64,000 bases of DNA from contig CBDCCZ010000054.1 in the NCBI GenBank assembly GCA_965215005.1, positions 32,001 through 96,000 of the forward strand, read 5' to 3'. Under the pieces are notes generated by a model that was not told where the DNA came from, did not search any database, and saw nothing but the letters and a program-made list of their open reading frames with translations. Positions within the stretch are counted from its first letter, which is position 1; every line of letters begins with the position of its first letter. Below are positions 43,300 to 62,454 of this stretch, piece by piece. The position numbers and the translations under genes were made by a program. Source of the DNA: Kofleriaceae bacterium (GTDB taxonomy: Bacteria > Myxococcota_A > Polyangia > Haliangiales > Haliangiaceae).

Positions 43300-44294
43300 G
43301 CTCGAGCAACAAAGGCGCTGGTGGTGCACAAGAAGACATTTCCGGCACTTCGTCGCGGCGGGTCTTCCTCACCGGTGGCACCGGCTTCATCGGCTCTGCA
43401 CTGGTCCGGGCGCTCGGCGCACGCGGCGACGTGCCGGTGGTGCTCACCCGCAGCCCCGACAAAGCGCGCCAGCGGCTCGAGGCTGATACCGTCATCGTTT
43501 CCGGCGATCCCGAGCTCGGCGGCGATTGGCAATCGGAGCTGTGCGGTGCCAACGCCGTGGTGCATCTTGCTGGCGAGTCGGTGGCGAGCAAGCGCTGGAG
43601 TGCGCGACAAAAGCAGATCATCCGGGATAGCCGCGTCGAGAGCACGCGCAATCTGGTCGAAGCTCTCGCGGCGTGTCCGGCAGAGGAGCGCCCGGCCGTG
43701 CTGGTGAGCGCCTCTGGGGTCGACTATTATCCGTTTTCCCACGAGCTCGGGCTCGGGGATGACGATGCGATCACCGAGTCGGATCCGCCGGGGGACTCGT
43801 TCTTGGCGCGGGTGTGCCGCGCATGGGAGCAAGAGGCGCGGGGCGCGGAGGCGCATGGAACACGCGTGGTGCGGATGCGAACCGGCCTCGTCGTCGGTCC
43901 GGGCGGGGCGCTCGACAAGATGACGACGCCGTTCAAAGCCTTCATCGGCGGCCCGGTCGGGAGCGGCGCGCAATGGATGAGCTGGATCCACCTTGACGAC
44001 GTGGTGCGCGCGTATCTACGGGCCATCGACGACGCCACGCTGACCGGCGCAGTCAACTTGGTGGCGCCGCAACCGGTGCGCGCCAAGCGGTTCTTCAACG
44101 CGCTGGGGACTGCCATGCAGCGGCCGTCGTGGCTGCCGGTCCCGGCGTTTGCTGTGCGTCTGGCGCTTGGGGAGTTTGCCGAGCACGTGCTCCACGGTCG
44201 CCGTGCCGTGCCGCAAGCGCTGCTCGCCGCAGGGTTCGAGTTTTGCTACCCCGAGGTAGCGCCGGCGTTAGAAAACGCGATCCAGAACGACTGA
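43296..44294 (+). CDS. TIGR01777 (YfcH-like) NAD-dependent epimerase
   Basis: TGGTGFIG, HLAGE, SRV, GSGAQWMSWIHLDD, RPSWLPVP. Confidence 0.9.
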   Translation: MSSSNKGAGGAQEDISGTSSRRVFLTGGTGFIGSALVRALGARGDVPVVLTRSPDKARQRLEADTVIVSGDPELGGDWQSELCGANAVVHLAGESVASKRWSARQKQIIRDSRVESTRNLVEALAACPAEERPAVLVSASGVDYYPFSHELGLGDDDAITESDPPGDSFLARVCRAWEQEARGAEAHGTRVVRMRTGLVVGPGGALDKMTTPFKAFIGGPVGSGAQWMSWIHLDDVVRAYLRAIDDATLTGAVNLVAPQPVRAKRFFNALGTAMQRPSWLPVPAFAVRLALGEFAEHVLHGRRAVPQALLAAGFEFCYPEVAPALENAIQND

Positions 44295-44333
44295 GGCAGC
44301 CATCGCGAGCATATTCGCGCGCCGCGTCTCCGC

Positions 44334-45935
44334 TCAGCGTGCCGGCGCAAGCTCATACTTTTGCACCAGGCGGATGAGGTTGCGGCGAGAGATCTTGAGC
44401 TCGGCCGAGGCTCGGGTCTTGTTCCACTTGTTGCGCTCGAGAGCCTCGAAGATCATCCGCCGTTCGAGACCTTTCACCGCCTCGGGAAGCGAGTCTGAGC
44501 GAATCAGGGCGCTGCTACTATCGCCCCGTTGGCGCTGCTCGCGAATTCGCATCGACAGCAGCGACGGACCGATGGTCGCCTCGTCGCCCGATAGCACCAC
44601 GAGTCGCTCGACCTCGTTCTCGAGCTCACGGACGTTGCCCGGCCACCCATACGACAACAGCAGCTGCTTACACTCGGTTGAGAGGCGCTTGCTCTTGCCA
44701 TGACGAGCATGCTTCTCGAGAAAGTGCTCGAACAAGATCTCGATATCCTCGCGGCGCTCACGCAGCGGAGGAATCAACAGGTTGATTACGTTGATGCGGT
44801 AGTAGAGATCCTCGCGGAACTCTCCGCGGTCAACCATGCCTTTGAGGTCGCGATTGGTCGCAGCGATGATGCGCACGTCGACCTGGCGCATCTCGGTGTC
44901 GCCCACCGGCGTAAAGGTGCCCTCTTGCAGAACCCGCAATACTTTCACTTGCAAGGCGGGCGACATATCGCCGATCTCATCGAGAAAGAACGTCCCCTGA
45001 TCGGCGACCTCAAAGAGCCCCTGCTTATCGGCGATGGCGCCGGTGAATGCGCCGCGGGTATGCCCAAAGAGCTCCGAATCGAGAAGGTTGTCGTTGAACG
45101 CCGAGCAGTTCGTCACGATGAAACGCCGCGTCTTGCGCGGTGAGTTGAAGTGAATGGCGCGCGCGACCAGCTCTTTACCGGTGCCGTTTTCACCTTGAAT
45201 GAGCACCGTGGAGTCTGAGAGCACCACGCGATCCAAGATGCTGTAGAGGTCTTGCATCGGCCCGGACCTGCCGATGATGGCGTCGTAGCTGTAGCGGGTC
45301 GCGAACTCTTCTTCGAGGCCGGCCGCGCTCTGGCGCACCACCGGTGCGGCGACGTTGGCGACCTCGAGGGCGGCTTCGCGCACCAGCTCGGCCACGTAGG
45401 AGAGATCGCGCTCGTCGAGCCATGGGTGCTCATCGCGTGCGGCTAGATATTCGGCCGGTGCCAGCGCCAACGATGCGGTGCGGTGATCGACCATTGCAAA
45501 GGCGGCGCTGTGGTTGATGCCTCCGGCGACGAAGAAGCCGCCGCACAAGAGCGCGCCGTGCACCCGACCATCGATGACGATCGGCGCTGCCAGCTCGGTG
45601 AGGCCGGCGTGGCAACCTATGCGAATCGGCTCGACGGAGGGCTCGCCGTCGCTGTTGCGGGCAGCCTCGATCAGCCGCCGGATGGTCTCACCCGCACTCG
45701 CCTGGCAGGCGCGCTCGCCCGCTTCGCGGTCGCCGATGACCTGGCACAAACCACGCGGGCCGGCGTGATGGCTGGTTCGAGGCGGGCGCCGCTCACCGCT
45801 GGCTGCATCGACATACCCAAACCCCAAGCGCCAGCGTCGGCTGGCGATCTTCGCCACCTTCTTGACGACATGAAGCTGGAGCAATTCGCTCCATGGAAGG
45901 CCGGATCGCGGAGGCAAGGCTCCAGAGCGTGACAA
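44334..45935 (-). CDS. sigma54 enhancer-binding protein with PocR sensor domain
   Basis: N-terminal C...C...CHAGLTELAAPI...GALLCGG; GENGTGKE, GAFTGA, HTH. TTG start uncertain (45935 or 45917). Confidence 0.85.
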   Translation of the reverse strand: MSRSGALPPRSGLPWSELLQLHVVKKVAKIASRRWRLGFGYVDAASGERRPPRTSHHAGPRGLCQVIGDREAGERACQASAGETIRRLIEAARNSDGEPSVEPIRIGCHAGLTELAAPIVIDGRVHGALLCGGFFVAGGINHSAAFAMVDHRTASLALAPAEYLAARDEHPWLDERDLSYVAELVREAALEVANVAAPVVRQSAAGLEEEFATRYSYDAIIGRSGPMQDLYSILDRVVLSDSTVLIQGENGTGKELVARAIHFNSPRKTRRFIVTNCSAFNDNLLDSELFGHTRGAFTGAIADKQGLFEVADQGTFFLDEIGDMSPALQVKVLRVLQEGTFTPVGDTEMRQVDVRIIAATNRDLKGMVDRGEFREDLYYRINVINLLIPPLRERREDIEILFEHFLEKHARHGKSKRLSTECKQLLLSYGWPGNVRELENEVERLVVLSGDEATIGPSLLSMRIREQRQRGDSSSALIRSDSLPEAVKGLERRMIFEALERNKWNKTRASAELKISRRNLIRLVQKYELAPAR

Positions 45936-46008
45936 GGAGTCACACCAAAAGCAAGCGCCCGGCTGCAATTGCGGCGCGCCGCTCGCGTCCGCGCGAGAGC
46001 GAGCGCGG

Positions 46009-46665
46009 CTACGGCGGTAAGTCGACCGCGTGTCGCAAGGCGGCGCGGTTCTCCGCCCAGGCGGCGTCATCTTCCATGAACGGCACCTCGAGAGTGACAA
46101 CTTCGAGACCGCGGTCCACGCCGTACTTCGAGCCAAGCGAGCCTGGCGTTGCGTAGCCGATGTCGGCGGAGGCGCCGTAGCCGTTGTGTGCGGCCATCTC
46201 TTCGGCGAGCGCTTGGCCGGCGCCGTCCCAGTTGACGGTGCGAAACGGCTGGTGAATCGCCAGGAGCCGCCGTGGAGTAACGCGCTCGATGAGCGCCGTG
46301 AGTGCCTCGACCTCGGGCTCGGACTCCGGCGCAAGGCCTGGCCGATAACCGGCCTTGTGCTGCGCAGTCCAATTGCGCGCGGCGAAGTTGCGGTTCAGGT
46401 CCACGTCGTTGGCGTTGTTCTTGGTGCCTGCAGCGAGGCCATCGCCGTTGAGCGCAAAGATGATCCACGTGTCGCGGCCGGGCGGCCGCTCGATCAGCTC
46501 CTCGGCCAGTCGCAGAAGCAGCACCGCGCCAATGGGCTCATCGCCGTGAATGGCGCCAAACAAGATCGCGGGGTCGCGAGGGCGAGCGTAGCTCGGAGGC
46601 GCAAAGTGCACCGCGGTGATTGGCCGTCCCAGGACCGTGGTGCCGATGTCTAGCTCGCGCCTCAG
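46009..46665 (-). CDS. mpaA: M14 murein-peptide amidase (MpaA-like)
   Basis: GTTVLGRPI, IHGDE, DLNRNF, SEPE, IGYATPGSLG, TLE. Apparent CTG start. Confidence 0.8.
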   Translation of the reverse strand: MRRELDIGTTVLGRPITAVHFAPPSYARPRDPAILFGAIHGDEPIGAVLLLRLAEELIERPPGRDTWIIFALNGDGLAAGTKNNANDVDLNRNFAARNWTAQHKAGYRPGLAPESEPEVEALTALIERVTPRRLLAIHQPFRTVNWDGAGQALAEEMAAHNGYGASADIGYATPGSLGSKYGVDRGLEVVTLEVPFMEDDAAWAENRAALRHAVDLPP

Positions 46666-48200
46666 GCGTGCTCCAGCGTCTTGCCAACGATGGTGGCGCC
46701 GCCGTACGCGGTGAGGCCGAGCCACGCCGCCTGCGCCAGTGGCAGAAGTATCGTGGCGCCGAAGCGCTCGGCGAGCACCGCGCCGGGCGCAGTTGCGAGC
46801 GCGACGTGCAGCACCGCGACCACCAAGCCGAGAAAAATCCACGCCCACGCCAGCGGGACGCCGGCGCCGCTCGATGACGGCGGCATCCACACGAGAAGGG
46901 ACAGCACCGCCAACACCGCGGGCAACAGCCCGAGGAAGGCGTCGAGCTTGTGGCTTCCGGGCGTGGCGCCGAGGGCCTCGATGCGCTCGAGCAGCGAAAC
47001 TCCCCCTTCGGCGGGCAACAGCAGGCCGAGTAACACCAGCACGGCGCCGGCGCTGACGAGCAGCCGCGGCGCGAGATGGTCGCGGTAGACGCTGCGCGCG
47101 ATGAGGCCGATGGTAACCGCCGCCACCCCAAGCACGCCCAGCAGGCTCTGCCACGAGGTGGTTTCCGCGGGTCCGAGATACATCAGCGGGCCCATGGCGA
47201 TGAGCAACGCGATGATCCCGCGCCCGAGCGTCGCCAGCGGCAGCAAGCTGATGACCACCGCGAGCCCCCCCGAGCCCAATAGCAGCAGCGGCAACACCTT
47301 GGCGGGCATCGCTTCGCCGCTGAAGCCGGTGAAGGCAAACTGCACCGTGGGCACGAACGACCATGGCAACACGGCCGTGGCGAGAAGCGTAGCGCCCAGC
47401 GCCAGCATCACGGTGCGCAGCGTTTGCTCCCACGGGTCGATCGGCGCATTCAAGCGCGCCGCAGTCTGCGAGGCCAGATAGGGCGGCTCGCTCGGTGGCA
47501 GCGCTTGCGCCTGGCTATCAGAGTACGAAACCGGCGGCGGCGGCCCATGAGCGCCCGCGTTGGCGGGACTGTAGGCCAAGGTTCCGCCGGTGCCGGCGAT
47601 GATGGTCTGGGTGGTGGGGCCAGCGGGCGCGGCGCTGCTCGCTAGCGGAGGCTGCGCCGGCGGCGGGCCCTGCAGCTCGTGCTGCGCCAGGTGCTGCGAT
47701 GATGCGCCAGGGGAGGCTGCCGCGTCCGGTGCTGGCCCTGTCGGCTGCGCGATGATCGTGCGCTGGCTGGCGGCGCTAGTCGAGGAGACGCCCGGCGGCA
47801 GCGGCGCGACCAACGTCGTCTGCGAAGCTCGCGCGGCGGCATCATCATTAATAGGAGGATGCGCGGCGGCAATTTCGCCCTGCACAGCGGTGGGCGCGGA
47901 GGGGGCAGCCCAGAGGCGGTCCTGGGATTGGTGGGGCGCGTTCGCTGGCGGTCCGTCGGAGGGTTGGCGCCCGGGGCCGTCCGCTGCGTCACGGGAATCG
48001 CTGCTGTCCGCGGCGTCCGTTGCGCGGTTGTCGGCTTCGGCTTCTGGGTTGCGATTCGCCCCGGCCGCCTCCGCGCCACCGATATATCCGAGCATCGTTT
48101 GGCCCAGCGCCGCCACCGGAGCCGGCTGCTTGGTGCCGCAAAACACGCAGTGCAGCGCGGTGTCGGGGAGCTCTTTGGTACAACTTACGCAGGTCTTCAC
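46662..48200 (-). CDS. Zinc-ribbon + Pro/Ala linker + multi-TM membrane protein
   Basis: GTG start, CVSC-x10-CVFCG, about 7-8 hydrophobic helices at the C-terminus. Confidence 0.75.
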   Translation of the reverse strand: MKTCVSCTKELPDTALHCVFCGTKQPAPVAALGQTMLGYIGGAEAAGANRNPEAEADNRATDAADSSDSRDAADGPGRQPSDGPPANAPHQSQDRLWAAPSAPTAVQGEIAAAHPPINDDAAARASQTTLVAPLPPGVSSTSAASQRTIIAQPTGPAPDAAASPGASSQHLAQHELQGPPPAQPPLASSAAPAGPTTQTIIAGTGGTLAYSPANAGAHGPPPPVSYSDSQAQALPPSEPPYLASQTAARLNAPIDPWEQTLRTVMLALGATLLATAVLPWSFVPTVQFAFTGFSGEAMPAKVLPLLLLGSGGLAVVISLLPLATLGRGIIALLIAMGPLMYLGPAETTSWQSLLGVLGVAAVTIGLIARSVYRDHLAPRLLVSAGAVLVLLGLLLPAEGGVSLLERIEALGATPGSHKLDAFLGLLPAVLAVLSLLVWMPPSSSGAGVPLAWAWIFLGLVVAVLHVALATAPGAVLAERFGATILLPLAQAAWLGLTAYGGATIVGKTLEHA

Positions 48201-48293
48201 GATTCGTGCCTCCAGGCTGCGTAAACCCGCTGGAGCAAAGGAAACGTTGGGGCCCCGCACGCGGCCAGGAGTATAGGCGATGCGGCCGCGAAG

Positions 48294-49628
48294 GTGTCAA
48301 TCGGTGCTACCGTGCAAGACGTGGCAACCGTCGGGGAACTAAAGACCCACGCGACGCGACGATTCGCCAATGGCGACGCGGCCAGCGCTCTGCGCCTCTA
48401 CGACGCGGTGGTGGCCGCCGCGCCGCTCGACTACGAAGCGCGTTTGCGCATCGCCGACTGCCTCACCGCGCTTGGTCACAGCGATGCCGCGGCGCCCGTA
48501 TATCGCGCCGTGGCGTGGTATGCGATGAAGTCGGGTCATCCACTGGTTTCCGTGGTGTGCGCGCGGGTGCTCGAGTCGCTGGGCGCCGAGCACGAGGATC
48601 TCGCCACTGCCCTCGTCGTGCAGTACGGCAGCGACTCTGAGCTCATCGGCTCCTTTGCTGCGCGGGTGAGCCTGCCGCCGGCAACGCTCGAGCTGGAGGC
48701 GCCGGAGTTGCGAGCGCCGCCGACAGCAGATTGGCTGGCCGAAGTCGCCGCCCGCGCGGTGCACTGCTGCGACGACTTCGATGCCTTCCCCGAGGTGCTG
48801 CACCCGATTCCGCTGTTGTCCAGCATGTCCGAGGCTGCCTTTCGCCGCGTCCTGGCCACGCTGGTGGTTCGGCGCTTGCCGCACGGCGAGCAGGTGGTGC
48901 GCCAAGGGGATCCTGGCGCGTCGTTCTACTTCGTGGCAACCGGCGAGGTCCGCGTGTGTAGCGCCACCGCCGAGGGCCAACGCGAGCTGGCTCGATTGCA
49001 CGAGAATGCCTTGTTCGGCGAGATGGCGCTGCTCAGCGCGCAGCCGCGCAGCGCTTCGGTAGAGGTGCTGGGGGAGGCCGACCTCCTGGAGGTTACGCGC
49101 GCGTCGCTGGCGGCCCTGGCTGATGAGCTGGCGCCGGTGGCGCAGGCGCTGCACGGCTTCACGCGCGAGCGTCTGATCAAGAATTTGATGGCCCAGAGTC
49201 CTCTGTTCCGGCCATTCGACCGCACGCAGCAGCGCGAGCTCCTCCGCCGCTTTACCAGCCACGACGTCGCCGCCGGCGCCGCCATCATCGGCGAGGGCGA
49301 AGAAGGGCGAGGGCTGTTTTTGGTGCTGTCGGGAGAGGTCGAGGTGACCACCCGCGATGATCAGGGCGAGTCTGTCGCGCTGGCCAAGCTGGGTGCTGGC
49401 GACGTGTTTGGCGAGATATCGCTGTTGCGCGGTGGCGCTACGACCGCCTCGGTCATCGCCGTGCAGCCGACCACGGTGCTTTTTCTGGCTCGCGATTATG
49501 TCGAGCGGATCGTCGCGGGTGTGCCGGAGATCGGCCAGTATCTGGCCGCGTTGGCCGAGGACCGTGCCCTCGACCGCGAGCTTGCGCGGGACCGCGACGA
49601 GGACTCGCAGGTCGTCGTGCTCTTCTAG
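48294..49628 (+). CDS. TPR + two cyclic-nucleotide-binding domains
   Basis: FGEMALL..PRSASV and FGEISLL..ATTASV. Confidence 0.88.
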   Translation: MSIGATVQDVATVGELKTHATRRFANGDAASALRLYDAVVAAAPLDYEARLRIADCLTALGHSDAAAPVYRAVAWYAMKSGHPLVSVVCARVLESLGAEHEDLATALVVQYGSDSELIGSFAARVSLPPATLELEAPELRAPPTADWLAEVAARAVHCCDDFDAFPEVLHPIPLLSSMSEAAFRRVLATLVVRRLPHGEQVVRQGDPGASFYFVATGEVRVCSATAEGQRELARLHENALFGEMALLSAQPRSASVEVLGEADLLEVTRASLAALADELAPVAQALHGFTRERLIKNLMAQSPLFRPFDRTQQRELLRRFTSHDVAAGAAIIGEGEEGRGLFLVLSGEVEVTTRDDQGESVALAKLGAGDVFGEISLLRGGATTASVIAVQPTTVLFLARDYVERIVAGVPEIGQYLAALAEDRALDRELARDRDEDSQVVVLF

Positions 49629-49811
49629 TACGACGGCTTTACAGCGCCCCCTTCGGCGATGGTTGCTTGCTAGCGGTTTGCGACGCGCGCCCAAACCGCT
49701 AGAGGTCGCGTTCGCGGTGCGGGAGCGGCGGACGGGTCACGCCTGCCGATTGGCTGCGCCGGCTGCCTTTGCACGAGCGCCGACTTCATCAACCGGTATA
49801 ATCGAGACCAC

Positions 49812-51653
49812 ATGGACGAACGCAGCACCTCAAAGCGCAAAGGGAGCGGCCTTCTATGGCTGCTCGTGTTGGTCGCGGTCCTACTCGTGTGGTGGTACTG
49901 GCGGCCCGATGCAAATCGCGCGGTCGCTGCCTCCGACGATGCTGCCGACCGCTATGCCGATCCCGACGATATCCTCGTCGATATGGTCGATGACGTCGAT
50001 GCAGACGCCATTGCCGCCATCGAGCGCGAGCTGAATATCGAGCTCGTTCTGGTCTCGGACCAATCCTTCGACGAGCGCTTTTATCGCGCTCACGTCGAGC
50101 CCCAGCGGCGCGACGCGGTGCTCGCCGCGCTCTCCAAGAGCGGGCTGGTCGAGATTGCCGAGCCCGATGCCACGGTCTCGCTCTGGCCTTCGGAGACCTT
50201 TCGTGCACCCGCGGTGCATGATGGTTCTGGCTATCCCAACGATCCCCTCTACAAGCACCAGTGGCACCTCGACCAGATTCGCATGCCCGCGGCGTGGAAG
50301 CTTGCCGATGGCAATGGCGTCATCGTTGCCGTGCTCGATACCGGCGTGGCGTTTCAGACCCGCGAACGGTTCCACCGCGTTGAAGACTTAAACGGTGTCT
50401 CCTTCGTCAAGCCCTTCAACTTCGTCAACAACGATACGTTTGCCGAAGACGACCACGGTCACGGCACCCACGTGGCTGGCACCATTGCGCAGGTCACCAA
50501 CAACGGCATCGGCGTGGCCGGCGTAGCGCGCAACGTGAAAATCATGCCGCTCAAGGTGCTGAGCGGCTCGGGCTCCGGCTCGGTGGGCGGCATCGCCGAT
50601 GCTATCCGCTACGCGGCCGATGAAGGCGCCAAAGTCATCAACATGAGCTTGGGCGGTCGGTTTCCGTCGCGCGTGCTCAAGAAGGCTGTTGAGTACGCCC
50701 ACAGCAAAGGCGTGACGGTGGTGTGCGCGGCCGGCAACGAGAGCCGCGGCAAGGTTGGCTATCCCGCTGCCTATCCCGGGGCAGTGGCGGTGTCGGCCAC
50801 CCAGTTCGACGAAGCCACCACCTTCTACTCCAACTATGGCGTCGATATCGATATCGCAGCGCCCGGTGGCAACACGCGCATCGACCAAAACGGCGACGGC
50901 ATGCCCGATGGCGTCCTGCAGAACACCATTGCCATTCAAGATCCCAGCAAGAGCGACTATTTCGGCTTTATGGGCACCTCGATGGCGTCTCCGCACGCTG
51001 CGGGCGTGGCTGCCTTGGTGGTTGGCGAAGGCATTACCGACCCAGACGCGGTGGAGCGAATCCTCAAGTCTACGGCCCGCAAGCCGGATCGCCAGCGCTG
51101 GGATCCCGAGCGCTACGGCGCGGGCATCATCGACGCCGAGGCGGCGGTGCTGGCTGCACGGTCGAGCCAGGGCGGCTGGCAGCTACTGCTAGGCCTGCTG
51201 CTCGCGGGCGGGGTTGCCTCGTCGGTGCGCCGGCGCGGGCTTGGGGTAAGGCTCGGTCCGAGTTATCTGGGGGGCGTGATGCTCGGCGCGAGCGGGCTGT
51301 TCTTTCTCCCGTGGCTCGCAGCCGGAATGTCGTCGCTGCCCGGGATTGCGATGCTCACGCACGGCCTGCCGTCGTGGGATCTCGCTGTGCTCGGCGGCCA
51401 GGGCCATGGCAACGCGCTGTTCTTTAGCGCCCTGCTGCCACTCGGGCTGTTGGTGCTCGGGGCCGGCGTGTCTCGCTTGCGCGCGCCGCTGGCCGGTCTG
51501 GCCGTGGGCGTCGCCGGGCATCTCGTGTTTCACTTGGCAGCGCGCGTCACGGACATTCAGTACGTGCCCGGCGTGGGCCTGCTCGATGCGCTCTGGCTGG
51601 CGATGAACGCGCTGGTGTGCGTGGGTGCCGCGATGCTGGTGCTGCGCCGCTAG
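49812..51653 (+). CDS. S8 subtilisin-family protease with C-terminal TM domain
   Basis: Catalytic triad VLDTG, HGTHVAGT, GTSMA; hydrophobic C-terminus. Confidence 0.93.
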   Translation: MDERSTSKRKGSGLLWLLVLVAVLLVWWYWRPDANRAVAASDDAADRYADPDDILVDMVDDVDADAIAAIERELNIELVLVSDQSFDERFYRAHVEPQRRDAVLAALSKSGLVEIAEPDATVSLWPSETFRAPAVHDGSGYPNDPLYKHQWHLDQIRMPAAWKLADGNGVIVAVLDTGVAFQTRERFHRVEDLNGVSFVKPFNFVNNDTFAEDDHGHGTHVAGTIAQVTNNGIGVAGVARNVKIMPLKVLSGSGSGSVGGIADAIRYAADEGAKVINMSLGGRFPSRVLKKAVEYAHSKGVTVVCAAGNESRGKVGYPAAYPGAVAVSATQFDEATTFYSNYGVDIDIAAPGGNTRIDQNGDGMPDGVLQNTIAIQDPSKSDYFGFMGTSMASPHAAGVAALVVGEGITDPDAVERILKSTARKPDRQRWDPERYGAGIIDAEAAVLAARSSQGGWQLLLGLLLAGGVASSVRRRGLGVRLGPSYLGGVMLGASGLFFLPWLAAGMSSLPGIAMLTHGLPSWDLAVLGGQGHGNALFFSALLPLGLLVLGAGVSRLRAPLAGLAVGVAGHLVFHLAARVTDIQYVPGVGLLDALWLAMNALVCVGAAMLVLRR

Positions 51654-51782
51654 CTTCCCTTCGCCCATTGCAGTTCACGAGAGCCGCGCGACGATGTCAC
51701 GCGGCTCTTCGTGCGCTCGGGCTCGGCGCTGGGGGCTCACGCTCGCCACCATTGGCGCGTGCTTCGCGGTACCGTGCCGCTC

Positions 51783-52280
51783 ATGTCGCCGCATCGTCTG
51801 GTCGTCGAGCGCCAGCAGTTCAAGTTTTCCTGTGCTCACATGACCGTTTTTCCTGACGGCAGCAAAGAGCGCTTGCACGGGCACAACTATCAGGTCGGAA
51901 TCGCCCTCGAGCTGCGCGAGGTGTCGTTTGCGACCATGATTCCCTTCGCCGACCTCAAGGCTGAGCTCGCAGCGCTGTGCGCGGAGTGGAAGGAGTACAC
52001 GTTCCTCGCCGCGAGAAACCCGTACTTCGAGCTCGTGCGTCATGACGACGACGAGGTGGAATTTCGCCTCTGCGGCAAGCGCTACGTGCTGCCTGTGGAA
52101 GACGTCAAGATCTTGCCGCTGGACAACATCTCGGTCGAGCGGCTTGCGGAGCACGTCGCTTCCCTGCTGATCGAGCGGACGCGTCGGGTGTTCGAGCGCG
52201 AGGTGGTTCTGGGCCTCGAGGTGACCGTCACGGAGAGCCCCGGGCAAGGCGCCAGCTGCTATCGACGGCTGCGCGAGTAG
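51783..52280 (+). CDS. 6-pyruvoyl-tetrahydropterin synthase family (PTPS-III type)
   Basis: FSCAH, ERLHGHNY, SVERLA, VTES. Confidence 0.85.
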   Translation: MSPHRLVVERQQFKFSCAHMTVFPDGSKERLHGHNYQVGIALELREVSFATMIPFADLKAELAALCAEWKEYTFLAARNPYFELVRHDDDEVEFRLCGKRYVLPVEDVKILPLDNISVERLAEHVASLLIERTRRVFEREVVLGLEVTVTESPGQGASCYRRLRE

Positions 52281-52429
52281 GTCGCTACGACCGGTGGATA
52301 GACCCCGACCTCAGTCCGCGACGCGAGGCCGGGGGAACTGCGACATCTTTGTCAGGGCGGGCCATCGGGAATATGAACGGGTCGCCAGACGTTGCGATTA
52401 GGACCACCCAGGGTCCTAAACGATCACCG

Positions 52430-52466
52430 AAAAATGCGAAAGCCCCCGGCCTGCTGACCGGAGGCT
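52430..52466 (-). terminator. Intrinsic terminator on the minus strand
   Basis: Minus strand AGCCTCCGG-tcagcagg-CCGGGGGCT-TTCGCATTTTT. The stem pairs fully (one G-U) only on this strand. Confidence 0.7.
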
Positions 52467-52589
52467 CTCACCCCCAACTCCACGGAAAGTCTAAGAAAAG
52501 GCGCTAACGAAGCTAGTTGAGTAAATCAGTCGAAGTGTAATGAGGGGGCAAAGGCGCGGGCCCGATCGATAGTCGCCCGCTGCCTGCCC
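52430..52589 (-). ncRNA. Putative sigma54-dependent small RNA (~160 nt)
   Basis: Lies between the sigma54 promoter (52599-52614) and the terminator; 5' stem starts at the predicted +1; no ATG-initiated ORF. Confidence 0.6.
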
Positions 52590-52598
52590 TAAGCCTAG

Positions 52599-52614
52599 AG
52601 CAAGGGACGGGCCA
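52599..52614 (-). promoter_or_regulatory. sigma54 -24/-12 promoter
   Basis: TGGCCCG-TCCC-TTGCT, one mismatch from TGGCACG-N4-TTGCW. Confidence 0.7.
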
Positions 52615-52752
52615 CACCTGCTACTCCTCGCAATCTCTTGTGTTTGTCGATCGCCCGTGTTACCGACGGGCTCTGCATGCCCGTCTGAATCGGCGTAGGT
52701 AGGACATCCGTGTCACGGCCGGGCGAGCAGGCGCAACTTTCTGCACAGCCCA

Positions 52753-54411
52753 ATGCCAGAGAACGTTCTTGTCGTGAATGCAGAGGGCCCCGAGACCCGC
52801 GTAGGCGTGGTCCACGAGGGCGTCCTCTCCGAGTACTTCGTCGAGCGCAAGCGCGAGCGAGGCATGGTCGGCAACATCTATCGCGGTCGCGTGACGCGAG
52901 TGTTACCGGGCATGCAAGCCGCCTTTGTGGATCTCGGCCCCACCGTTGAACGCGCCGCGTTCCTGTACGTCGCCGATGTGCTGGGCGCCGCTGACGAGAA
53001 GAAGCACCTCACTGAGGATAGCGACGACTCCAGCGACGACTCCCCCGAGGGCACCGCCTCGCGCATCGTGCGGTCGCGCAAACGCGATGAGAACCGCAAG
53101 ATCGAGGACTTGCTCAAGCCCGGCCAGACGGTGCTCGTGCAGATCGTTAAAGATCCCATCGGTCCCAAAGGCGCGCGGGTTACCGGATATCTGTCGCTGC
53201 CGGGGCGCTACTCGGTGTTCATGCCGGCGATCGACCACATCGGGGTCTCGCGTCGCATCGCCGCGGATGCCGAGCGCAAGCGACTGCGCGACATCGTGAG
53301 GGAGGTCAAGCCCAAGGGCGCCGGGTTCATCTTGCGTACCGCCGCCGAAGCCACCGCCGATGACGAGATTCGCGACGATGTGACCTACTTGGTGCGCCTA
53401 TGGGAAGAGATCATGCGGCGCGAGAAGACCACCAAAGGTCCTGGTCTGGTCTACGCAGATCTCGATTTGGTGCTGCGGACGGTGCGGGATCTTCTGCGGC
53501 ACGACACCACGCACATCTATATCGATGATCCCGACCAGTACGACCGCGCGAAGAAGTTCACGTCGGCGTTCTTGCCGCGCTATGCCGATCGCATCCAGCA
53601 CTACGATGGCCGGCAGGCCATCTTCGATCACTTCGGCATCGAGGCCGAGCTGCGCAGCGCTTCGTCGCGCCGCGTACCGCTCAAATCGGGCGGCTCGTTG
53701 GTGATCGACCAAGGCGAGGCCCTCACCGCGATCGACGTCAACACCGGCAGCTTCGTCGGCAAAGACGATCTCGAGCAGACGGTCACCAAGAACAATCTCG
53801 AAGCCTGCAAAGAGGTCGCTCGTCAGCTTCGGCTGCGCAACATCGGCGGCATCATCGTGATCGACTTCGTCGACATGGACAAAGAGGCCAATCGCAAGAA
53901 GGTCTGGGACGCCTTCAACAAGGCGCTCGAGGGCGACCGCTCGCGCTGCAACGTCACCAAGATCAGCGAGCTCGGGCTGGTAGAAATGACCCGCAAGCGG
54001 ACGCGTGAGTCGCTGTTGCAGCTGCTCACCGAGCCGTGCGCGGCGTGTGATGGCGCTGGCGTGGTCAAGAGCACCACCACGGCGGCGTACGAGATCCTGC
54101 GCGAGGTGCGGCGGCTCGGCAACACCGCCCCGGCGGACGAGATCGACGTCGAGTGCGCGCCACGGGTGGCGGAGCTGCTGCGCAAGTTCGAACGCGATTA
54201 CCTCGACGAGCTCGAGAAGAAGTTCCAAAAGAAGATCGAGATCAAGGGCAACGCGTCGATGCGCGCCGGGCAGTTCAAAGTGGCGGGCCGCGGTGGCGAC
54301 ACCAACGCCGTCGAGCTCGCTGGCGGCAATGGCAAGGCCGGTCGCCGTCGCTCGAGCCGCGGCGGCCGTAAGCGCGGCAAGCCCAAAGACAGCGAAACGC
54401 CAACCAGCTGA
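52753..54411 (+). CDS. rng: Rne/Rng family ribonuclease (RNase G-like length)
   Basis: GNIYRGRV..VLPGMQAAFVD, AIDVNTG, RLRNIGGIIVIDFVDM, EMTRKR, CxxCxG. Confidence 0.93.
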   Translation: MPENVLVVNAEGPETRVGVVHEGVLSEYFVERKRERGMVGNIYRGRVTRVLPGMQAAFVDLGPTVERAAFLYVADVLGAADEKKHLTEDSDDSSDDSPEGTASRIVRSRKRDENRKIEDLLKPGQTVLVQIVKDPIGPKGARVTGYLSLPGRYSVFMPAIDHIGVSRRIAADAERKRLRDIVREVKPKGAGFILRTAAEATADDEIRDDVTYLVRLWEEIMRREKTTKGPGLVYADLDLVLRTVRDLLRHDTTHIYIDDPDQYDRAKKFTSAFLPRYADRIQHYDGRQAIFDHFGIEAELRSASSRRVPLKSGGSLVIDQGEALTAIDVNTGSFVGKDDLEQTVTKNNLEACKEVARQLRLRNIGGIIVIDFVDMDKEANRKKVWDAFNKALEGDRSRCNVTKISELGLVEMTRKRTRESLLQLLTEPCAACDGAGVVKSTTTAAYEILREVRRLGNTAPADEIDVECAPRVAELLRKFERDYLDELEKKFQKKIEIKGNASMRAGQFKVAGRGGDTNAVELAGGNGKAGRRRSSRGGRKRGKPKDSETPTS

Positions 54412-54421
54412 GCACGACGTC

Positions 54422-54448
54422 GTCGAGGGCCCGCCTGCGGCCCTCGAC
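54422..54448 (+). terminator. Hairpin after rng
   Basis: GTCGAGGGCC-N7-GGCCCTCGAC; no U-tract. Confidence 0.4.
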
Positions 54449-54619
54449 TCATCGGTGATTCGGCGCTAGCCCGCCGGTCAGCCGTGTCGTCGGCTCCGCG
54501 GCCAAGGCATTGCGTGTTGCCACGGAGAGACTGGCCGGCCAGAGCCACGCCCGCAGTGCTGCCGCTGGCGCTGGTGTCGGCTACACTGCTGCCGCGCCTT
54601 TGGGGCGCTTGCATTCGCC

Positions 54620-55255
54620 ATGAGCTACACCCGCCGGATCATCGAGACCGCCCGCGACGGGCTCAACACGTTGATGGCGCGCGTTGCCGCCGACGACACG
54701 CCGCTCTCCCACGTGCATGCAGAAGAGCTCCACGGTGAGCTCAGTGACCGCAAAGCGGCTCGCGATGCATCGGGTAAAGGACCGCTGGACAACCCTCGCG
54801 CTAAGCTCGCTGGCGCCTCGGAAGCGGCGCAGCGGCAGCGGCAAAAGATGGCTGCAGACCGCGAAGCGCGGATTCTCGGGGCGCGCCGCAAGCAGCAGGA
54901 AGCCCAGCAACGCGCCCAGGACGCTGCCTTTCGCGAGGCGCAAGAGCGGGCGCGGCGGCAGACCCGCTCCAGCAGCAATACCAGCGCCGGCTCTCAGCAG
55001 TCCAGTGGTAGCCGTCGCACCCAAGGCTTTCCGTTCGGCCGGCACGACGAGAAGCTCGCGCAGTACTACAAGGTGCTCGACCTAGCTCCGGGCGCCAGCT
55101 TCGATGAAGTTAAGCAGGCCTATCGGAAGGCGATGCGCAAGTATCATCCCGATCGTCACGCTGGAAATCCCAAGAAGCAGAAGGCGGCCACCGAGCTCAC
55201 GATGCGCGTGACTCAGGCCTACAACGAGCTCGAGCAACATTTGAAAAAGCGCTAG
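54620..55255 (+). CDS. J-domain protein (C-terminal J domain)
   Basis: YYKVLDL...YRKAMRKYHPDR...AYNEL. Confidence 0.9.
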   Translation: MSYTRRIIETARDGLNTLMARVAADDTPLSHVHAEELHGELSDRKAARDASGKGPLDNPRAKLAGASEAAQRQRQKMAADREARILGARRKQQEAQQRAQDAAFREAQERARRQTRSSSNTSAGSQQSSGSRRTQGFPFGRHDEKLAQYYKVLDLAPGASFDEVKQAYRKAMRKYHPDRHAGNPKKQKAATELTMRVTQAYNELEQHLKKR

Positions 55256-56300: not shown

Positions 56301-57413
56301 ATGGTAGCCGTTCAAGTTCAATCCGAAGAAATGCGTCGCGTCCTCGACGACGAAGGCAAGGTCCTCCCCGGCGCCAAGCCGCCCGCGATTCCCGAAGACG
56401 ACCTCGTTCGCATCTTCGACACGATGATGATGGTGCGCGTCATGGACGACCGCATGATGCGCCTGCAGCGACAGGGCCGGCTCGGCTTTTATATGAAGTC
56501 GATCGGCGAAGAGGCGAGCCACTTTGCCGTCTACCCGCTGCGCCAGAGCGACTGGGTGTTTCCGAGTTATCGCGAGCCGGGCGCGTTCTTCTGGCGCGGT
56601 TACACCATCGAGACCTTCATCAATCAGTTGTTCGGCAACGTTCGTGATCCCATCAAGGGTCGGCAGATGCCGGTGCATCACAGCTTTCGCGAAGGCAATG
56701 TCGTCTCGATTAGCTCTCCGGTTGGTACGCAGATTCCGCAGGCCGTGGGTGCCGCGCAAGCCGCCAAGATCTCCGGCACCGACGATGTTGCGGTGACCTA
56801 CTTCGGCGAGGGCACCTCGTCTACTGGCGAGTTCCACGTCGCGATGAACTTCGCCGGCGTATGGAAGGCGCCGGTTGTGTTCATCTGTCGCAATAACGGC
56901 TGGGCCATCTCGGTGCCGCTCGAGAAGCAGACCGCTGCCAAGAGCTTTGCTTCCAAGGGCGTTGGCTACGGCATGCCGGGCGTGCTCGTCGATGGCAACG
57001 ACGTGCTGGCCGTGATTGCGGCCTCCAATGAAGCCGTCGAGCGCGCTCGTGCGGGCGACGGCCCAACGCTCATTGAAGCGCGCACCTATCGCGTGCAGGG
57101 ACACTCGAGCTCCGACGATCCGTCGGTGTATCGAGATGCCAACGAGCCGGCGATTTGGGAGCGAAAAGATCCGCTCAAGCGGTTTCGCAACTATCTCAAG
57201 AGTAAAGACGTCTGGTCCGAAGAGCTCGAGAGCTCGATCGTCGAGAAGCACAATCAGGCGATTACCGACGCACTGGCGCAAGCCGAAGAGCTCGGCCCGC
57301 CGCCCCTGGAGACGCTGTTTGACGACGTCTACGAGCACACCACCTGGAACCTTGACGAGCAGCGCGAGTGGTTGCTCGCTCAGGACCGCGTCAAGTCCCC
57401 CCACAGCCACTGA
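56301..57413 (+). CDS. pdhA: 2-oxoacid dehydrogenase E1 alpha (copy 1)
   Basis: RQGRLGFY, GRQMPVH, GEG...NN ThDP motif, HSSSDDP. Confidence 0.9.
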   Translation: MVAVQVQSEEMRRVLDDEGKVLPGAKPPAIPEDDLVRIFDTMMMVRVMDDRMMRLQRQGRLGFYMKSIGEEASHFAVYPLRQSDWVFPSYREPGAFFWRGYTIETFINQLFGNVRDPIKGRQMPVHHSFREGNVVSISSPVGTQIPQAVGAAQAAKISGTDDVAVTYFGEGTSSTGEFHVAMNFAGVWKAPVVFICRNNGWAISVPLEKQTAAKSFASKGVGYGMPGVLVDGNDVLAVIAASNEAVERARAGDGPTLIEARTYRVQGHSSSDDPSVYRDANEPAIWERKDPLKRFRNYLKSKDVWSEELESSIVEKHNQAITDALAQAEELGPPPLETLFDDVYEHTTWNLDEQREWLLAQDRVKSPHSH

Positions 57414-57506
57414 CCTCGCACTGCGGCTCGTCCGCGCCGCGCGCGTGCGAGCCGAGTAGCGAGTGCTGCGCCGCTTAGACCGCCGCCGGAAACTCAGGAG
57501 CAATCG

Positions 57507-58481
<975 letters not shown>

Positions 58482-58483
58482 CC

Positions 58484-59842
58484 ATGTCGTTCAACTTCCA
58501 TCTGCCCGACATCGGGGAAGGCGTCGTCGAGGGCGAGATCGTGAGCTGGAAGGTCGCGGTTGGCGATCCGATTGCCCTCGATCAGCCCATGGTCGAGGTC
58601 ATGACCGACAAGGCCACGGTCGAGATTCCCGCGCCGCGGGCTGGCACGATCAAACAGATCAACTTCAAAGAGGGCGAAATCTGCCCGGTGGGCGACGTGC
58701 TCGTCGTCATCGAAGAAGCGGGTGGCAAGGCCGCGGGTGGCAAGGCAGTAGCGCCACCGCAGGCGCCGCCGGCCAGCAAGAACGGCAACGGCGCCCATGC
58801 TCCTATGGCGGCGGGTGCCACGAAGGCCGAGCTGCCCACGCCGCCGCGCCAGGACCGCGCTAAGAACCAGCCAATGGCAACTGCTTCGGCCTCGCTCGTC
58901 GATGTCTCGGCGGACCGCCAACGGGTCAAGGCAACGCCGGCAACGCGCCGGTTAGCGCGGCAGATGAGCGTCGACATCACCACGGTCCCCGCGACCGGCA
59001 AACACGGTCGAGTCACCTCTGACGACGTTCGTGGGTTCGCCGAAAACGGCGGCTCGAGCGCCGGTCAAAGCGCCCGCGCTAACGGCGCCGGCTCGGCGCA
59101 AAGTCGAGCATTCGAGCCGCTGCGCATCGAGGACACCGGCGCCGAAGAGCGGGTGCCGCTGCGCGGAATGCGCAAGCGCATCGCCGAGAACATGACCAGG
59201 TCGGTGTTTACCGCCACGCACTTCACCTACGTCGAGGAGGTCGATATGACCGAGCTCGTCGAGGTGCGCGAGCGTGCCAAGAGCCGCGCGCAGGCGCGCG
59301 ATATCAAGCTCACCTATCTGCCGTTCATCGTCAAAGCGATCGTCTCGAACCTGCGCAAGTGGCCGCAGCTCAACGCCTCGCTCGACGAGTCGACCCAGGA
59401 GATCGTTCTCAAAAAGTATTATCACATCGGCATCGCCGCGCAGGGGCCGCAGGGGCTGGCGGTGAGTGTCCTGCGCGACGCTGATCGCCGCTCAATCTTT
59501 GATTTGGCGCAAGAGATTCAGCGGCTCGGCGACGCGGTGCGAACCGGCACCGCCTCACGCGAGGAGCTTACTGGCTCGACCTTCACGATCACCTCCCTCG
59601 GCAAGCTTGGCGGGGTGCTGGCGACGCCGATCATCAACTTCCCCGAGGTGGGAATCGTTGGTGTGCACAAGATGGAGCAGAAGCCCGCCATTCGCGACGG
59701 CGAGATCGTTGCGCGCTGGCTGATGAATCTCTCTATCTCACTCGATCATCGGTTGGTCGACGGCTGGGATGGCGCGATGTTCTTGCAGGACGTCAAGTCG
59801 TTCCTCGAAGACCCCACCACCATGTTCTTGGAGATGGTGTAA
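58484..59842 (+). CDS. pdhC: Dihydrolipoamide acyltransferase E2
   Basis: Single lipoyl domain (TDKA), E3-binding ATPATRRLA, DHRLVDG. Confidence 0.92.
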   Translation: MSFNFHLPDIGEGVVEGEIVSWKVAVGDPIALDQPMVEVMTDKATVEIPAPRAGTIKQINFKEGEICPVGDVLVVIEEAGGKAAGGKAVAPPQAPPASKNGNGAHAPMAAGATKAELPTPPRQDRAKNQPMATASASLVDVSADRQRVKATPATRRLARQMSVDITTVPATGKHGRVTSDDVRGFAENGGSSAGQSARANGAGSAQSRAFEPLRIEDTGAEERVPLRGMRKRIAENMTRSVFTATHFTYVEEVDMTELVEVRERAKSRAQARDIKLTYLPFIVKAIVSNLRKWPQLNASLDESTQEIVLKKYYHIGIAAQGPQGLAVSVLRDADRRSIFDLAQEIQRLGDAVRTGTASREELTGSTFTITSLGKLGGVLATPIINFPEVGIVGVHKMEQKPAIRDGEIVARWLMNLSISLDHRLVDGWDGAMFLQDVKSFLEDPTTMFLEMV

Positions 59843-61030
59843 ATGGCGGCGCCGACGGTCGCGAGTGGCAAGGGCAAGCCGGCAGCGCGCCCGGCGGCGC
59901 GACGCGGCGCCTTCGCGTATTTCGACAAGAGCCCTGAGGACAAGGCACGCGGGCTGTTTCAGCTCATCGACGAGGATGGTCACGCCAAAGCGGCCGATGT
60001 CGCCGGGGTGAGTGAAACGCTCGCGATGCGTCTCTATCGCGGCATGCTCACCATTCGCGTCACCGACGCTCGAATGATGGCGCTGCAGCGGCAGGGGCGC
60101 ATTGGCTTCTACGGTGAGGCGCTCGGGCAAGAGGCCGCCGTGGTCGGTTCCGCGGCGGCTTCCACGCCCGAAGACTGGATCGTCCCGGCGCTACGCGAGG
60201 CGGGCGTTGGCCTTCTGCGCGGAATGTCCCTTGGCGGCTACATTGCGCAGATCTATGGCAACGGCAACGACGTCACCAAGGGCCGGCAGATGCCCTGCCA
60301 TCCCTGCGATCGCCCAAGCAACTACGTGGTGATGTCATCGTGCGTGTCCACGCAAATTCCCCATGCGGTTGGCATCGCGATGGCCATGAAGCTCTCTGGT
60401 GACGGCGGCAAATGTTGCTTTGGCTACATGGGCGATGGCGGCACCAGCGAAGGCGATTTCCACGTCGCGCTCAACTTCGCAGGCGTGACTGCAGCGCCTG
60501 CGGTGCTGATCTGTCAGAACAACCAATGGGCCATCTCTACGCCGGGCACGGCACAAACCGCGGCTCCGACCATCGCCGTTAAGGGGCTTGGCTATGGCGT
60601 CGAGTCTCTACGTGCAGACGGCAACGACGTGCTCGCGGTTTACGAAGTTTGCAAATACGCTGCAGAGCGCGCTCGACGGGGCGACGGGCCTTCGTTCATC
60701 GAGCTCCTCACCTATCGCGTGAGCGCGCACTCCTCGTCAGATGATCCCTCACGCTATCGCGATGAGACGGTCACGGATGTGTGGAAGCGCAAGCGCGACC
60801 CGCTGGCTAGGCTGCACGCGTTCATGCAAGCTCGCGGATGGATCGATGACAAGCGGCGCGATGAGATGGCCGCTGAGCTCGAGCGCGAGGTGCGCAGCGT
60901 GATCGATTCGCAAGAGAGTGCTGGCAAGCCACCGCTCTCCTCCCTCATCGAAGATGTTTACGAAGAGCCAACTTGGCTGTTGCGCGAGCAGATGGACGAG
61001 CTCGTCCGCTCGCTAGAGGAGAATGACTAA
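59843..61030 (+). CDS. 2-oxoacid dehydrogenase E1 alpha (copy 2)
   Basis: RQGRIGFY, GRQMPCH, GDG...NN, HSSSDDP. Confidence 0.9.
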   Translation: MAAPTVASGKGKPAARPAARRGAFAYFDKSPEDKARGLFQLIDEDGHAKAADVAGVSETLAMRLYRGMLTIRVTDARMMALQRQGRIGFYGEALGQEAAVVGSAAASTPEDWIVPALREAGVGLLRGMSLGGYIAQIYGNGNDVTKGRQMPCHPCDRPSNYVVMSSCVSTQIPHAVGIAMAMKLSGDGGKCCFGYMGDGGTSEGDFHVALNFAGVTAAPAVLICQNNQWAISTPGTAQTAAPTIAVKGLGYGVESLRADGNDVLAVYEVCKYAAERARRGDGPSFIELLTYRVSAHSSSDDPSRYRDETVTDVWKRKRDPLARLHAFMQARGWIDDKRRDEMAAELEREVRSVIDSQESAGKPPLSSLIEDVYEEPTWLLREQMDELVRSLEEND

Positions 61031-62454
61031 TGGCAAGCGAGCAGCGAGTCGACTGTGTCGTCATCGGCAGTGGCCCCGGCGGATATCCAACCGGCATCCG
61101 CCTCGGTCAGCTGGGCGTCAAGACCGTGGTGGTCGAGAAGGAATATGCCGGCGGCGTATGTCTCAACGTCGGTTGCATTCCCTCCAAGGCTCTCATTCAC
61201 GCAGCCAAGACCTTCGAGAAGCTCGGGCACTCGGCCGACATGGGAATCCAGGTCAAAGAGGCGCCCGGCGTGGACATGGCCAAGATGCAGGAGTGGAAAT
61301 CCGGCATCGTCAATAAGCTCACCGGCGGCGTCAAGCAGCTGCTCAAAGCGGCGGGCACTGAGCTCGTCATGGGCACCGCCCGTATCGAGAAGGGCGGCGC
61401 CGATGGCCATAAAGTCATCGTCAAAGGCGAGAAGGGCGAAACCACGATTCTAGCCAAGAACGTGGTCATCGCGACCGGCACTCGTCCCATCGAGATTCCC
61501 GGCTTCGAGATCGACCAGAAGCGCGTGCTCGACTCGAGCGGCGGGTTGGCGCTCAGCGAAGTGCCCAAGCGAGTTGTGGTAATCGGCGGCGGCTACATTG
61601 GTCTCGAGCTCGGCACCGTCTACGCCAAGCTTGGCAGCAAGGTCACCGTGGTGGAGGCGTTGCCTTCCGTGCTGTCGGGAATGGAGCCCGAGTGCGTGAA
61701 GGTCGTGGCGCAGAAGCTGCGCAAGATGGGCGTCGAGGTGATGACGGAGGCCAAGGCCAAGTCGTGGCAAGACAAAGGCGATCGCGCGGTGGTCACCGTC
61801 ACCGCCAAAGATGGCAGCGAGGTCACTATCGACACCGACAAGATCTTGTTGTCGGTTGGCCGCCGGCCAAACTCGGAGAACCTTGGCCTCGACGGTCTGG
61901 GAGTCAAGGTCGAGCGTGGCTTCATCAAGGTCGATGAGTTCATGCGAACCAACGTGGCAGGCATCTACGCCATCGGCGACGTGGTCGGCGGCATGATGCT
62001 GGCGCACAAGGCGACCAAGGAAGGCATCACCGTCGCTGAGATCATCGCCGGCCACAGCGCCGCGATGGATGTACGCACCATTCCGGCCGTGGTGTTCACC
62101 GATCCGGAAATCGCTTCCACCGGCATGACCGAGGATCAGGCCAAAGAAGCCGGCTTCAAGAACCTCAAGGTCGGCAAGTTCCCCTTCGCCGCACTGGGAC
62201 GCGCCATGAGTGTCAATGACACCACCGGCTTTGCCAAAATCATCGCGGATGCCGACTCCGGGGAGATTCTCGGCCTGCACATCGTCGGCACCGGCGCCTC
62301 CGATCTCATCAGCGAAGGCGCACTCGCCATCGAGATGGGCGCGGTCCTGCACGACGTAGCCCTGACCATTCATCCGCATCCCACTCTCTCCGAAGCGGTC
62401 ATGGAAGCCGCCCACGTCGCCCTCGGCGAAGCCGTTCACGTTACCCAACGCTGA
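61030..62454 (+). CDS. lpdA: Dihydrolipoyl dehydrogenase
   Basis: GSGPGG, GGVCLNVGCIPSK, HPHPTLSE. Confidence 0.97.
   Translation: MASEQRVDCVVIGSGPGGYPTGIRLGQLGVKTVVVEKEYAGGVCLNVGCIPSKALIHAAKTFEKLGHSADMGIQVKEAPGVDMAKMQEWKSGIVNKLTGGVKQLLKAAGTELVMGTARIEKGGADGHKVIVKGEKGETTILAKNVVIATGTRPIEIPGFEIDQKRVLDSSGGLALSEVPKRVVVIGGGYIGLELGTVYAKLGSKVTVVEALPSVLSGMEPECVKVVAQKLRKMGVEVMTEAKAKSWQDKGDRAVVTVTAKDGSEVTIDTDKILLSVGRRPNSENLGLDGLGVKVERGFIKVDEFMRTNVAGIYAIGDVVGGMMLAHKATKEGITVAEIIAGHSAAMDVRTIPAVVFTDPEIASTGMTEDQAKEAGFKNLKVGKFPFAALGRAMSVNDTTGFAKIIADADSGEILGLHIVGTGASDLISEGALAIEMGAVLHDVALTIHPHPTLSEAVMEAAHVALGEAVHVTQR

Follow-up and report, generated by a model that had tools for sequence, protein, structure and literature searches.

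Sigma54-dependent promoters carry a -24/-12 element with the consensus GG-N10-GC, and RNAs of the CsrB/RsmZ type combine variable length, a variable number of short repeats and a terminator. GlmY of Enterobacteriaceae, which is transcribed from a sigma54 promoter with IHF and upstream activator sites (TGTC-N10-GACA), is a decoy RNA tied to the action of RNase E and a structured mimic of GlmZ. In Bacteroides, a host lacking Hfq, single-stranded parts of the sRNAs FopS and GibS are bound by the single-RRM protein RbpB; FopS is a multicopy base-pairing RNA with one conserved seed. CrcZ and CrcY of Pseudomonadaceae are non-coding RNAs controlled by a sigma54 promoter and an enhancer-binding protein, and the repeated short, A-rich motifs of CrcZ bind Hfq-Crc (PMC6292655).

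RNA regulation in myxobacteria proceeds without Hfq, and in the literature consulted here Pxr of Myxococcus xanthus is the characterized sRNA of the group. Pxr is a 108-nt RNA with conserved SL1/SL2, stem-loops and a terminator, located downstream of pxrR and transcribed, in a bacterium without Hfq, from a sigma54 promoter with an enhancer. It is reported only from Cystobacterineae (PMC5568312 and PMC5684412), and its features are also described in PMC11928866 and PMC10217877. MXnc1 and other candidate sRNAs of M. xanthus, which are intergenic, are described in a TRIC-seq preprint (10.1101/2025.09.11.675593), which reports sRNAs of this species pairing near Shine-Dalgarno (SD) sites without Hfq; CsrC and GlmY have few RNA partners in the same preprint. 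Further comparisons draw on PMC8538405, PMC11697453 and PMC13370968.

Here, we describe an apparently undescribed small-RNA gene family of the sigma54-driven regulatory kind, starting from a 64,000-nt stretch of the genome of a Kofleriaceae bacterium (hereafter, the window, from genome G000). The 472-nt gap between a PTPS-like gene and rng, which encodes an RNase of the E/G family, contains a complete predicted minus-strand unit (Table 1). A sequence-only reading of this gap had listed four parts, namely a sigma54 promoter at 52614-52599, a 5' stem-loop at the predicted +1, a pyrimidine-rich stretch, and a terminator with a U tract on the minus strand only. All four stood, and no ATG was found on the minus strand within the RNA region, in agreement with that reading; its list lacked the enhancer, the IHF-like site, the UAG repeats and the conserved block before the terminator.

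Table 1. Features of the predicted RNA gene and its surroundings (positions in the window)
Feature	Position	Strand	Remarks
Predicted non-coding RNA	52430..52588	-	~159 nt; putative +1 placed from the -12 box; based on sequence and on the homologous cassette in 70/72 order loci
Sigma54 -24/-12 promoter (GG-N10-GC)	52599..52614	-	TGGC-N7-TTGCT; sequence match
5' stem-loop	52546..52589	-	MFE and centroid folds; arms 52589-52575 and 52561-52546
U-rich body	52491..52545	-	Three UAG words: UAGCU 52515-52511, UUAG 52507-52504, UUAG 52494-52491
Conserved 3' block	52471..52494	-	Common to 4 homologues of 3 other genera; GGWGUUGG core 52481-52474
Intrinsic terminator	52430..52471	-	16 pairs at 52471-52436, U tract to 52430
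Palindromic upstream activator site GACA-N4-TGTC	52703..52714		~100 nt upstream of the sigma54 promoter; flanked by the putative rng promoter on one side and the rng start on the other
Second, weaker palindrome GCA(A/G)-N4-TTGC	52733..52744		Possible second activator site; noticed by eye across order loci
Second copy of activator palindrome	52342..52353		Downstream of the RNA; in 7/70 order loci
IHF-like site, CAA-N4-TTR core	52631..52640	-	Overlaps the -35-like hexamer of the putative rng promoter
Putative sigma70-type rng promoter	52638..52666	+	TTGTGT-N17-TACCGA, extended TG; a consensus scan did not pick it up
rng, RNase E/G family	52753..54411	+	552 aa; sole family member found in the genome; Pfam
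PTPS/QueD-like gene	51711..52280	+	Convergent with the RNA; other genes in its place in many relatives
Sigma54 enhancer-binding protein, candidate activator	44334..46334	-	PocR sensor, AAA+, Fis HTH; true start uncertain

Taken alone, the window provides weak statistics: the promoter pattern matches once against 1.26 matches expected, which is not above chance, and the fold of the RNA is modest (z -2.4). Two overlapping terminators were called at the locus, both on the minus strand, versus 0.4 in shuffled sequences. We judge the locus to be real because it is conserved in relatives, and on this comparative evidence the cassette very probably encodes a transcribed, functional RNA. Scans for the promoter and for motif clusters found no paralogue in the source genome. 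A short perfect inverted repeat with 8-bp arms lies between the PTPS-like gene and the RNA terminator (52398-52419).

The family had not been recognized in the sequence-only reading, and a search of Rfam 15 also came back empty: no family was near its gathering threshold for the window (best E 2.6) or for 14 homologous loci, whose top hit was snoRNA noise at E 0.32. Identity with Pxr was considered and rejected, given that there is no match to RF01812 at the locus and that the gene context differs, with rng and a PTPS-like gene as neighbours instead of pxrK/pxrR. Genome searches with RF01812, including 80 genomes, yielded no match, with no positive control among them. No description of the RNA was found in the literature on myxobacterial sRNAs, sigma54 decoys, RRM/UAG recognition and the PocR activator, a survey that mostly covered journals outside subscription.

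A BLAST-type DNA search matched 4 of 40 relatives only, all of them beside rng; therefore, homologues were sought by synteny with this gene. We located rng in 137 of the 147 genomes of the order Haliangiales (a tally that counts the unpublished genome G067) and read the upstream DNA of 72. A divergent sigma54 promoter is present in 70 of these, mostly 141-162 nt from the rng start, so that the comparison of rng-upstream regions suggested in the sequence-only reading came out in favour of conservation. The two loci without the cassette are L045 (G010, 77% complete) and L057 (G003); at L045, words resembling the rng promoter are retained and the sigma54 box has decayed. Beyond the order, the promoter was found in one of 20 loci in a first set, in 36 of 50 in a second (the 30 best rng matches and 20 picked by hand) and at 6 new loci among 10 more regions in a third, which combined extend the cassette to 13 further families of the class. 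The genomes sampled from families f5, f8, f9, f12-f16, f18, f73, f81 and f84-f86 yielded no cassette next to rng (f10 lay outside the sample), and none of 20 loci from other classes had the promoter there. At loci L077, L082-L087 and L090-L093 (families f12, f13 and f15), a different conserved gene on the same strand, which by eye we take to be CarD-like, directly precedes rng, and there is no cassette.

A strict pattern scan of GTDB returned 107 stretches, and 77 of the 80 that were fetched adjoin rng; where a title gives the family or order, it reads Kofleriaceae, Haliangium or Haliangiales. In metagenomes, the cassette was recognized by eye in 11 of 77 usable rng loci, those closest to the window locus, and a twelfth match to the promoter seems fortuitous. 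The cassette keeps its place next to rng even where its other neighbour changes. In genus g2 at least, however, it has been displaced from rng by 190-300 nt, and one genome has it at a distance of 2.8 kb; many relatives keep rng without the RNA.

Upstream of the promoter, GACA-N4-TGTC is present in 103 of 107 loci, at a distance of 99-103 nt in 80 of them and otherwise at 79, 89-91, 111-114, 121-124 or 135 nt, with one at 51. The spacing thus shifts by whole helical turns, in steps of about 11 bp, with p about 0.0001-0.0004 on 12 distinct distances, a value that treats kin as independent and comes from a test picked after the data were inspected. In 57 of 70 order loci, the stretch separating enhancer and promoter contains an IHF-like core (consensus from PMC3045617), whose distance to the promoter is mostly 26-28 nt. 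The putative enhancer, the IHF-like site and the promoter together make up the standard enhancer-dependent sigma54 layout. A word resembling the -10 element of the putative rng promoter recurs in 85 of 107 loci.

The enhancer-plus-promoter pattern occurs in 78 of 83 family genomes (unpublished G067 and G068 included), compared with 2 matches for a reversed-pattern control. It also precedes protein genes, in the source genome and in other families, and the activator would therefore have a small regulon. At G000:C38:22742-22867 (-), the enhancer palindrome and a sigma54 promoter stand before an ORF with a signal-peptide-like start, probably a second regulon member. At about position 75527 of G000:C58, a perfect TGACA-N4-TGTCA palindrome, absent from the promoter scan output, lies just 5' of a kinase-like ORF.

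The candidate activator gene lies 6 kb from the RNA and, by Pfam, does not encode a receiver-domain protein. Among 54 genomes compared (G067 again counted), 26 carry the best activator match and rng on one contig, and in 24 of these the two are at most 30 kb apart; in 8 genomes of other orders, the match is 2-12 kb from rng. Close matches were absent from the cassette-bearing families f71, f17, f80 and f83, with 25 candidates scored per genome. The gene order of the block at 43296-55255 is largely conserved in relatives; the block includes genes for epimerase-like, sigma54 activator, peptidase-like, membrane and TPR-cNMP proteins, an S8 protease with DUF5942, the PTPS-like protein, rng and DnaJ. 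Further along (56301-62454) is a 2-oxoacid dehydrogenase cluster, named from translations, with two E1-alpha-like genes (56301-57413 and 59843-61030).

The RNAs themselves are of very variable length. Terminator calls were usable at 67 order loci (3 were dropped). There, predicted length ranges from 96 to 581 nt with a median of 139, a UUUCG tail marks the terminator in 63, and ATG is absent from 45, the longest ATG frame elsewhere being 32 aa. The bodies, composed of 31% U and 19% A, do not align between genera. Within genus g14 (25 RNAs), the 5' stem and the terminator comprise 18 pairs, of which 9 have two-sided changes, a number equalled in none of 500 shuffles and far above that in slid controls; relatedness inflates the shuffle test, the structure was derived from the same alignment, and the g14 sequence differs from the window copy. 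Covarying stems, another feature for which the sequence-only reading had suggested looking, are accordingly present in this genus. The sole invariant stretch between the g14 stems is UAGUU, which is unpaired in the consensus fold and does not covary. Also in g14 (loci L011-L036), UUGCCG is common to two loops, that of the 5' stem and that of the terminator, and in the latter it is invariant across all 25 RNAs.

UAG is the recurrent word of the body. It is present in all 21 genus representatives, with 105 occurrences versus 61 in shuffles (z 8.7), and the extended form UAGCUU occurs 27 times versus 3. The density of UAGYU is 15.4 per kb, compared with 1.85 on the antisense strand, 0.66 in intergenic DNA and 1.8 in AT-rich intergenic DNA; this motif is found in 63 of the 67 order RNAs and in 18 of the 21 representatives, and its count climbs with RNA length (rho 0.56-0.66). 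At least two copies are present in 28 of 67 homologues and at most one in 39, and the window RNA, with one UAGYU and three UAG, is a modest example. Related words (GCUUA, CUUAG and UAGUU) are enriched in other orders too, where counts are at least the values obtained, several automatic terminator calls having ended early. Period-4 runs are common, and some RNAs have an optional hairpin with a YUA...UAA loop, noticed by eye. The clearest repeat expansion is seen in the longest homologue (L068, G033; 581 nt), in which ACUAGCUU and CUUGG units recur in tandem alongside a purine-rich stretch; within the order, L020 (G043) has a long (CCU)n tract beside its UAG repeats.

Variable length and a repeated, strand-specific motif are the anatomy of protein-titrating RNAs, and for this reason we prefer, at an even chance, the interpretation of the RNA as a signal-induced decoy that titrates an RNA-binding protein, ahead of base-pairing. 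GACA-N4-TGTC would be bound by an enhancer-binding protein, for which the linked PocR-domain activator is the most probable candidate, and looping of this protein to the sigma54 polymerase would switch on the RNA; several UAG(C/U)U or GCUUA(G/A) sites would then bind and titrate an RNA-binding protein and so free its mRNA targets, a mode of action that CsrB and CrcZ follow with different motifs and proteins. Because the IHF-like site overlaps the putative rng promoter and the enhancer falls within the rng leader, induction of the RNA might also, speculatively, lower rng transcription. Against titration we count the few UAGYU copies in the window RNA and most homologues, motif accessibility in single-sequence folds that is not greater than in the rest of the body (0.40 vs 0.46), the families with no close activator match, and the seed-like appearance of certain clade-specific invariant blocks and of a CUCCUCC tract.

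As for possible protein partners, Hfq was found in one of 201 genomes of the class and had no match in the source genome (92.8% complete), where a search confined to that genome found no CsrA either. This genome encodes three glycine-rich RRM proteins, one cold-shock protein and KhpA/B, for which the available part of the KhpA/B preprint gives no recognition motif. The minimal RNA bound by a eukaryotic RRM, that of Musashi, is UAG (PMC3326303). One of the three RRM proteins has the contact residues K, F, W, R, F and F at the same spacing as Musashi, largely general RRM features, and per domain the three are closest to plant GR-RBP and CIRBP, not Musashi. Single-RRM glycine-rich proteins would be the lead partner, a weak guess: a guess because their genes do not track the RNA and folding shows the motif no more open than its surroundings. 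Of 80 class genomes, 78 have RRM genes, regardless of whether they carry the RNA, so that these genes do not discriminate; one RRM-less genome (86% complete) has a UAG-rich RNA and another a UAG-poor one. We are doubtful of the full proposal, that is, a class-wide sigma54-induced decoy titrating single-RRM proteins through UAG repeats, without Hfq or CsrA, and wired reciprocally to the sole RNase E/G gene. If it were true, this decoy would be a CsrA/CsrB-like global switch operating on the RNA code of eukaryotic Musashi/hnRNP-type RRMs.

The main competitor, possible but less probable than titration, is an Hfq-independent trans base-pairing sRNA like Pxr or MXnc1, with GGWGUUGG, the clade-specific blocks or CUCCUCC as seeds and the UAG repeats as chaperone sites. 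Of the elements proposed as seeds in the sequence-only reading, the anti-SD-like words did not hold up, CCCUC occurring in 2 and CUUUCC in 6 of 67 homologues; what stands of its sRNA is a sigma54-type, ORF-less small RNA gene tightly linked to rng. The repeated UAG(C/U)U in a very variable body fits protein binding better than a seed. Pairing keeps its place because a GGWGUUGG block immediately precedes the terminator of 14 of 112 RNAs, which come from 8 families and include the window RNA, and because some lineages carry CUCCUCC, which is complementary to the SD sequence. However, GGWGUUGG is missing from the other 98 RNAs, and no seed is common to the order. CUCCUCC, with a hairpin following it, is mostly found outside the order, where it is strongly enriched (13 of 35 RNAs, compared with 1 of 67 within), and in 6 of 7 folded examples the prediction has it paired to the 5' end of the same RNA. 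Longer clade-specific invariant blocks do exist in the bodies, the M. xanthus sRNAs mentioned above reportedly pair near SD sites, and RbpB is an RRM protein able to act together with base-pairing sRNAs. Target prediction, proposed with the original claim, gave nothing in its favour, a duplex scan of 3,991 crude translation starts in one genome being no better than 2-5 shuffles.

The sequence-only reading had also tied the RNA to the adjacent RNase, and such a functional tie may exist, linkage and promoter overlap being the two lines of evidence. RNase E prefers single-stranded RN/UU, which the UAG motif loosely fits, and the RNA could be imagined as a decoy substrate or feedback regulator of this enzyme, with the U-rich repeats as cleavage or binding sites and the shared promoter region lowering rng transcription. 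The persistence of the cassette beside rng as the other neighbour changes, the status of rng as the only family member in the genome, and the overlap of the two sets of control sites agree with this scenario. We nevertheless consider it improbable: the overlap is not required, as the displaced cassettes of genus g2 and of the 2.8-kb case demonstrate, an invariant UAG exceeds the need of a nuclease, and rng is kept without the RNA in many relatives.

Self-pairing of the repeats (AGCU and CUAG palindromes, and UUAG via G-U) into RNA dimers or a scaffold, in place of protein sites, is suggested by motifs that are paired as often as the rest of the body and by the period-4 runs; it is very unlikely, such short helices being weak and the g14 consensus leaving UAGUU unpaired. 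Equally remote is a non-functional RNA (a leader, a small-peptide gene, the PTPS-gene terminator, or a side product of a DNA element controlling rng), which the poorly conserved body and the prediction of the RNA from sequence alone would allow, against a downstream gene that is convergent here and variable elsewhere, a terminator that persists without the PTPS gene, the rarity and shortness of ATG frames, covarying stems and a strand-specific motif.

The decoy interpretation has practical consequences, in that the UAG repeat could serve as a specific bait with which to look for the RNA-binding protein still missing, and cultured Haliangium or Kofleria strains would make the RNA testable. With Pxr, the family would be a second set of sigma54 sRNAs, in a different, largely uncultured class, with a defined promoter and enhancer sequence and a candidate activator.

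Comparison with the described systems places the RNA among several of them. It shares with Pxr the myxobacterial host, the sigma54 promoter and enhancer, the stem-loops and terminator and the absence of Hfq, but lies beside rng and varies six-fold in length. MXnc1 resembles it as an intergenic myxobacterial sRNA. FopS and GibS, too, come from an Hfq-less host with a single-RRM protein, whereas the RNA described here is single-copy and sigma54-driven and has internal repeats. CsrB/RsmZ have a similar anatomy, but GGA, at 12.3 per kb compared with 12.4 in intergenic DNA, is not enriched here, and no match to their partner CsrA was found in the source genome. CrcZ and GlmY are precedents for sigma54-controlled decoys; the motif here is UAG(C/U)U in place of the A-rich sites of CrcZ, in a class where Hfq is nearly absent, and the activator site is GACA-N4-TGTC in place of the longer-spaced, inverted arrangement of GlmY. 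The RNA is thus most like CrcZ or GlmY in its control and CsrB or CrcZ in its anatomy, and is a member of none of these families.
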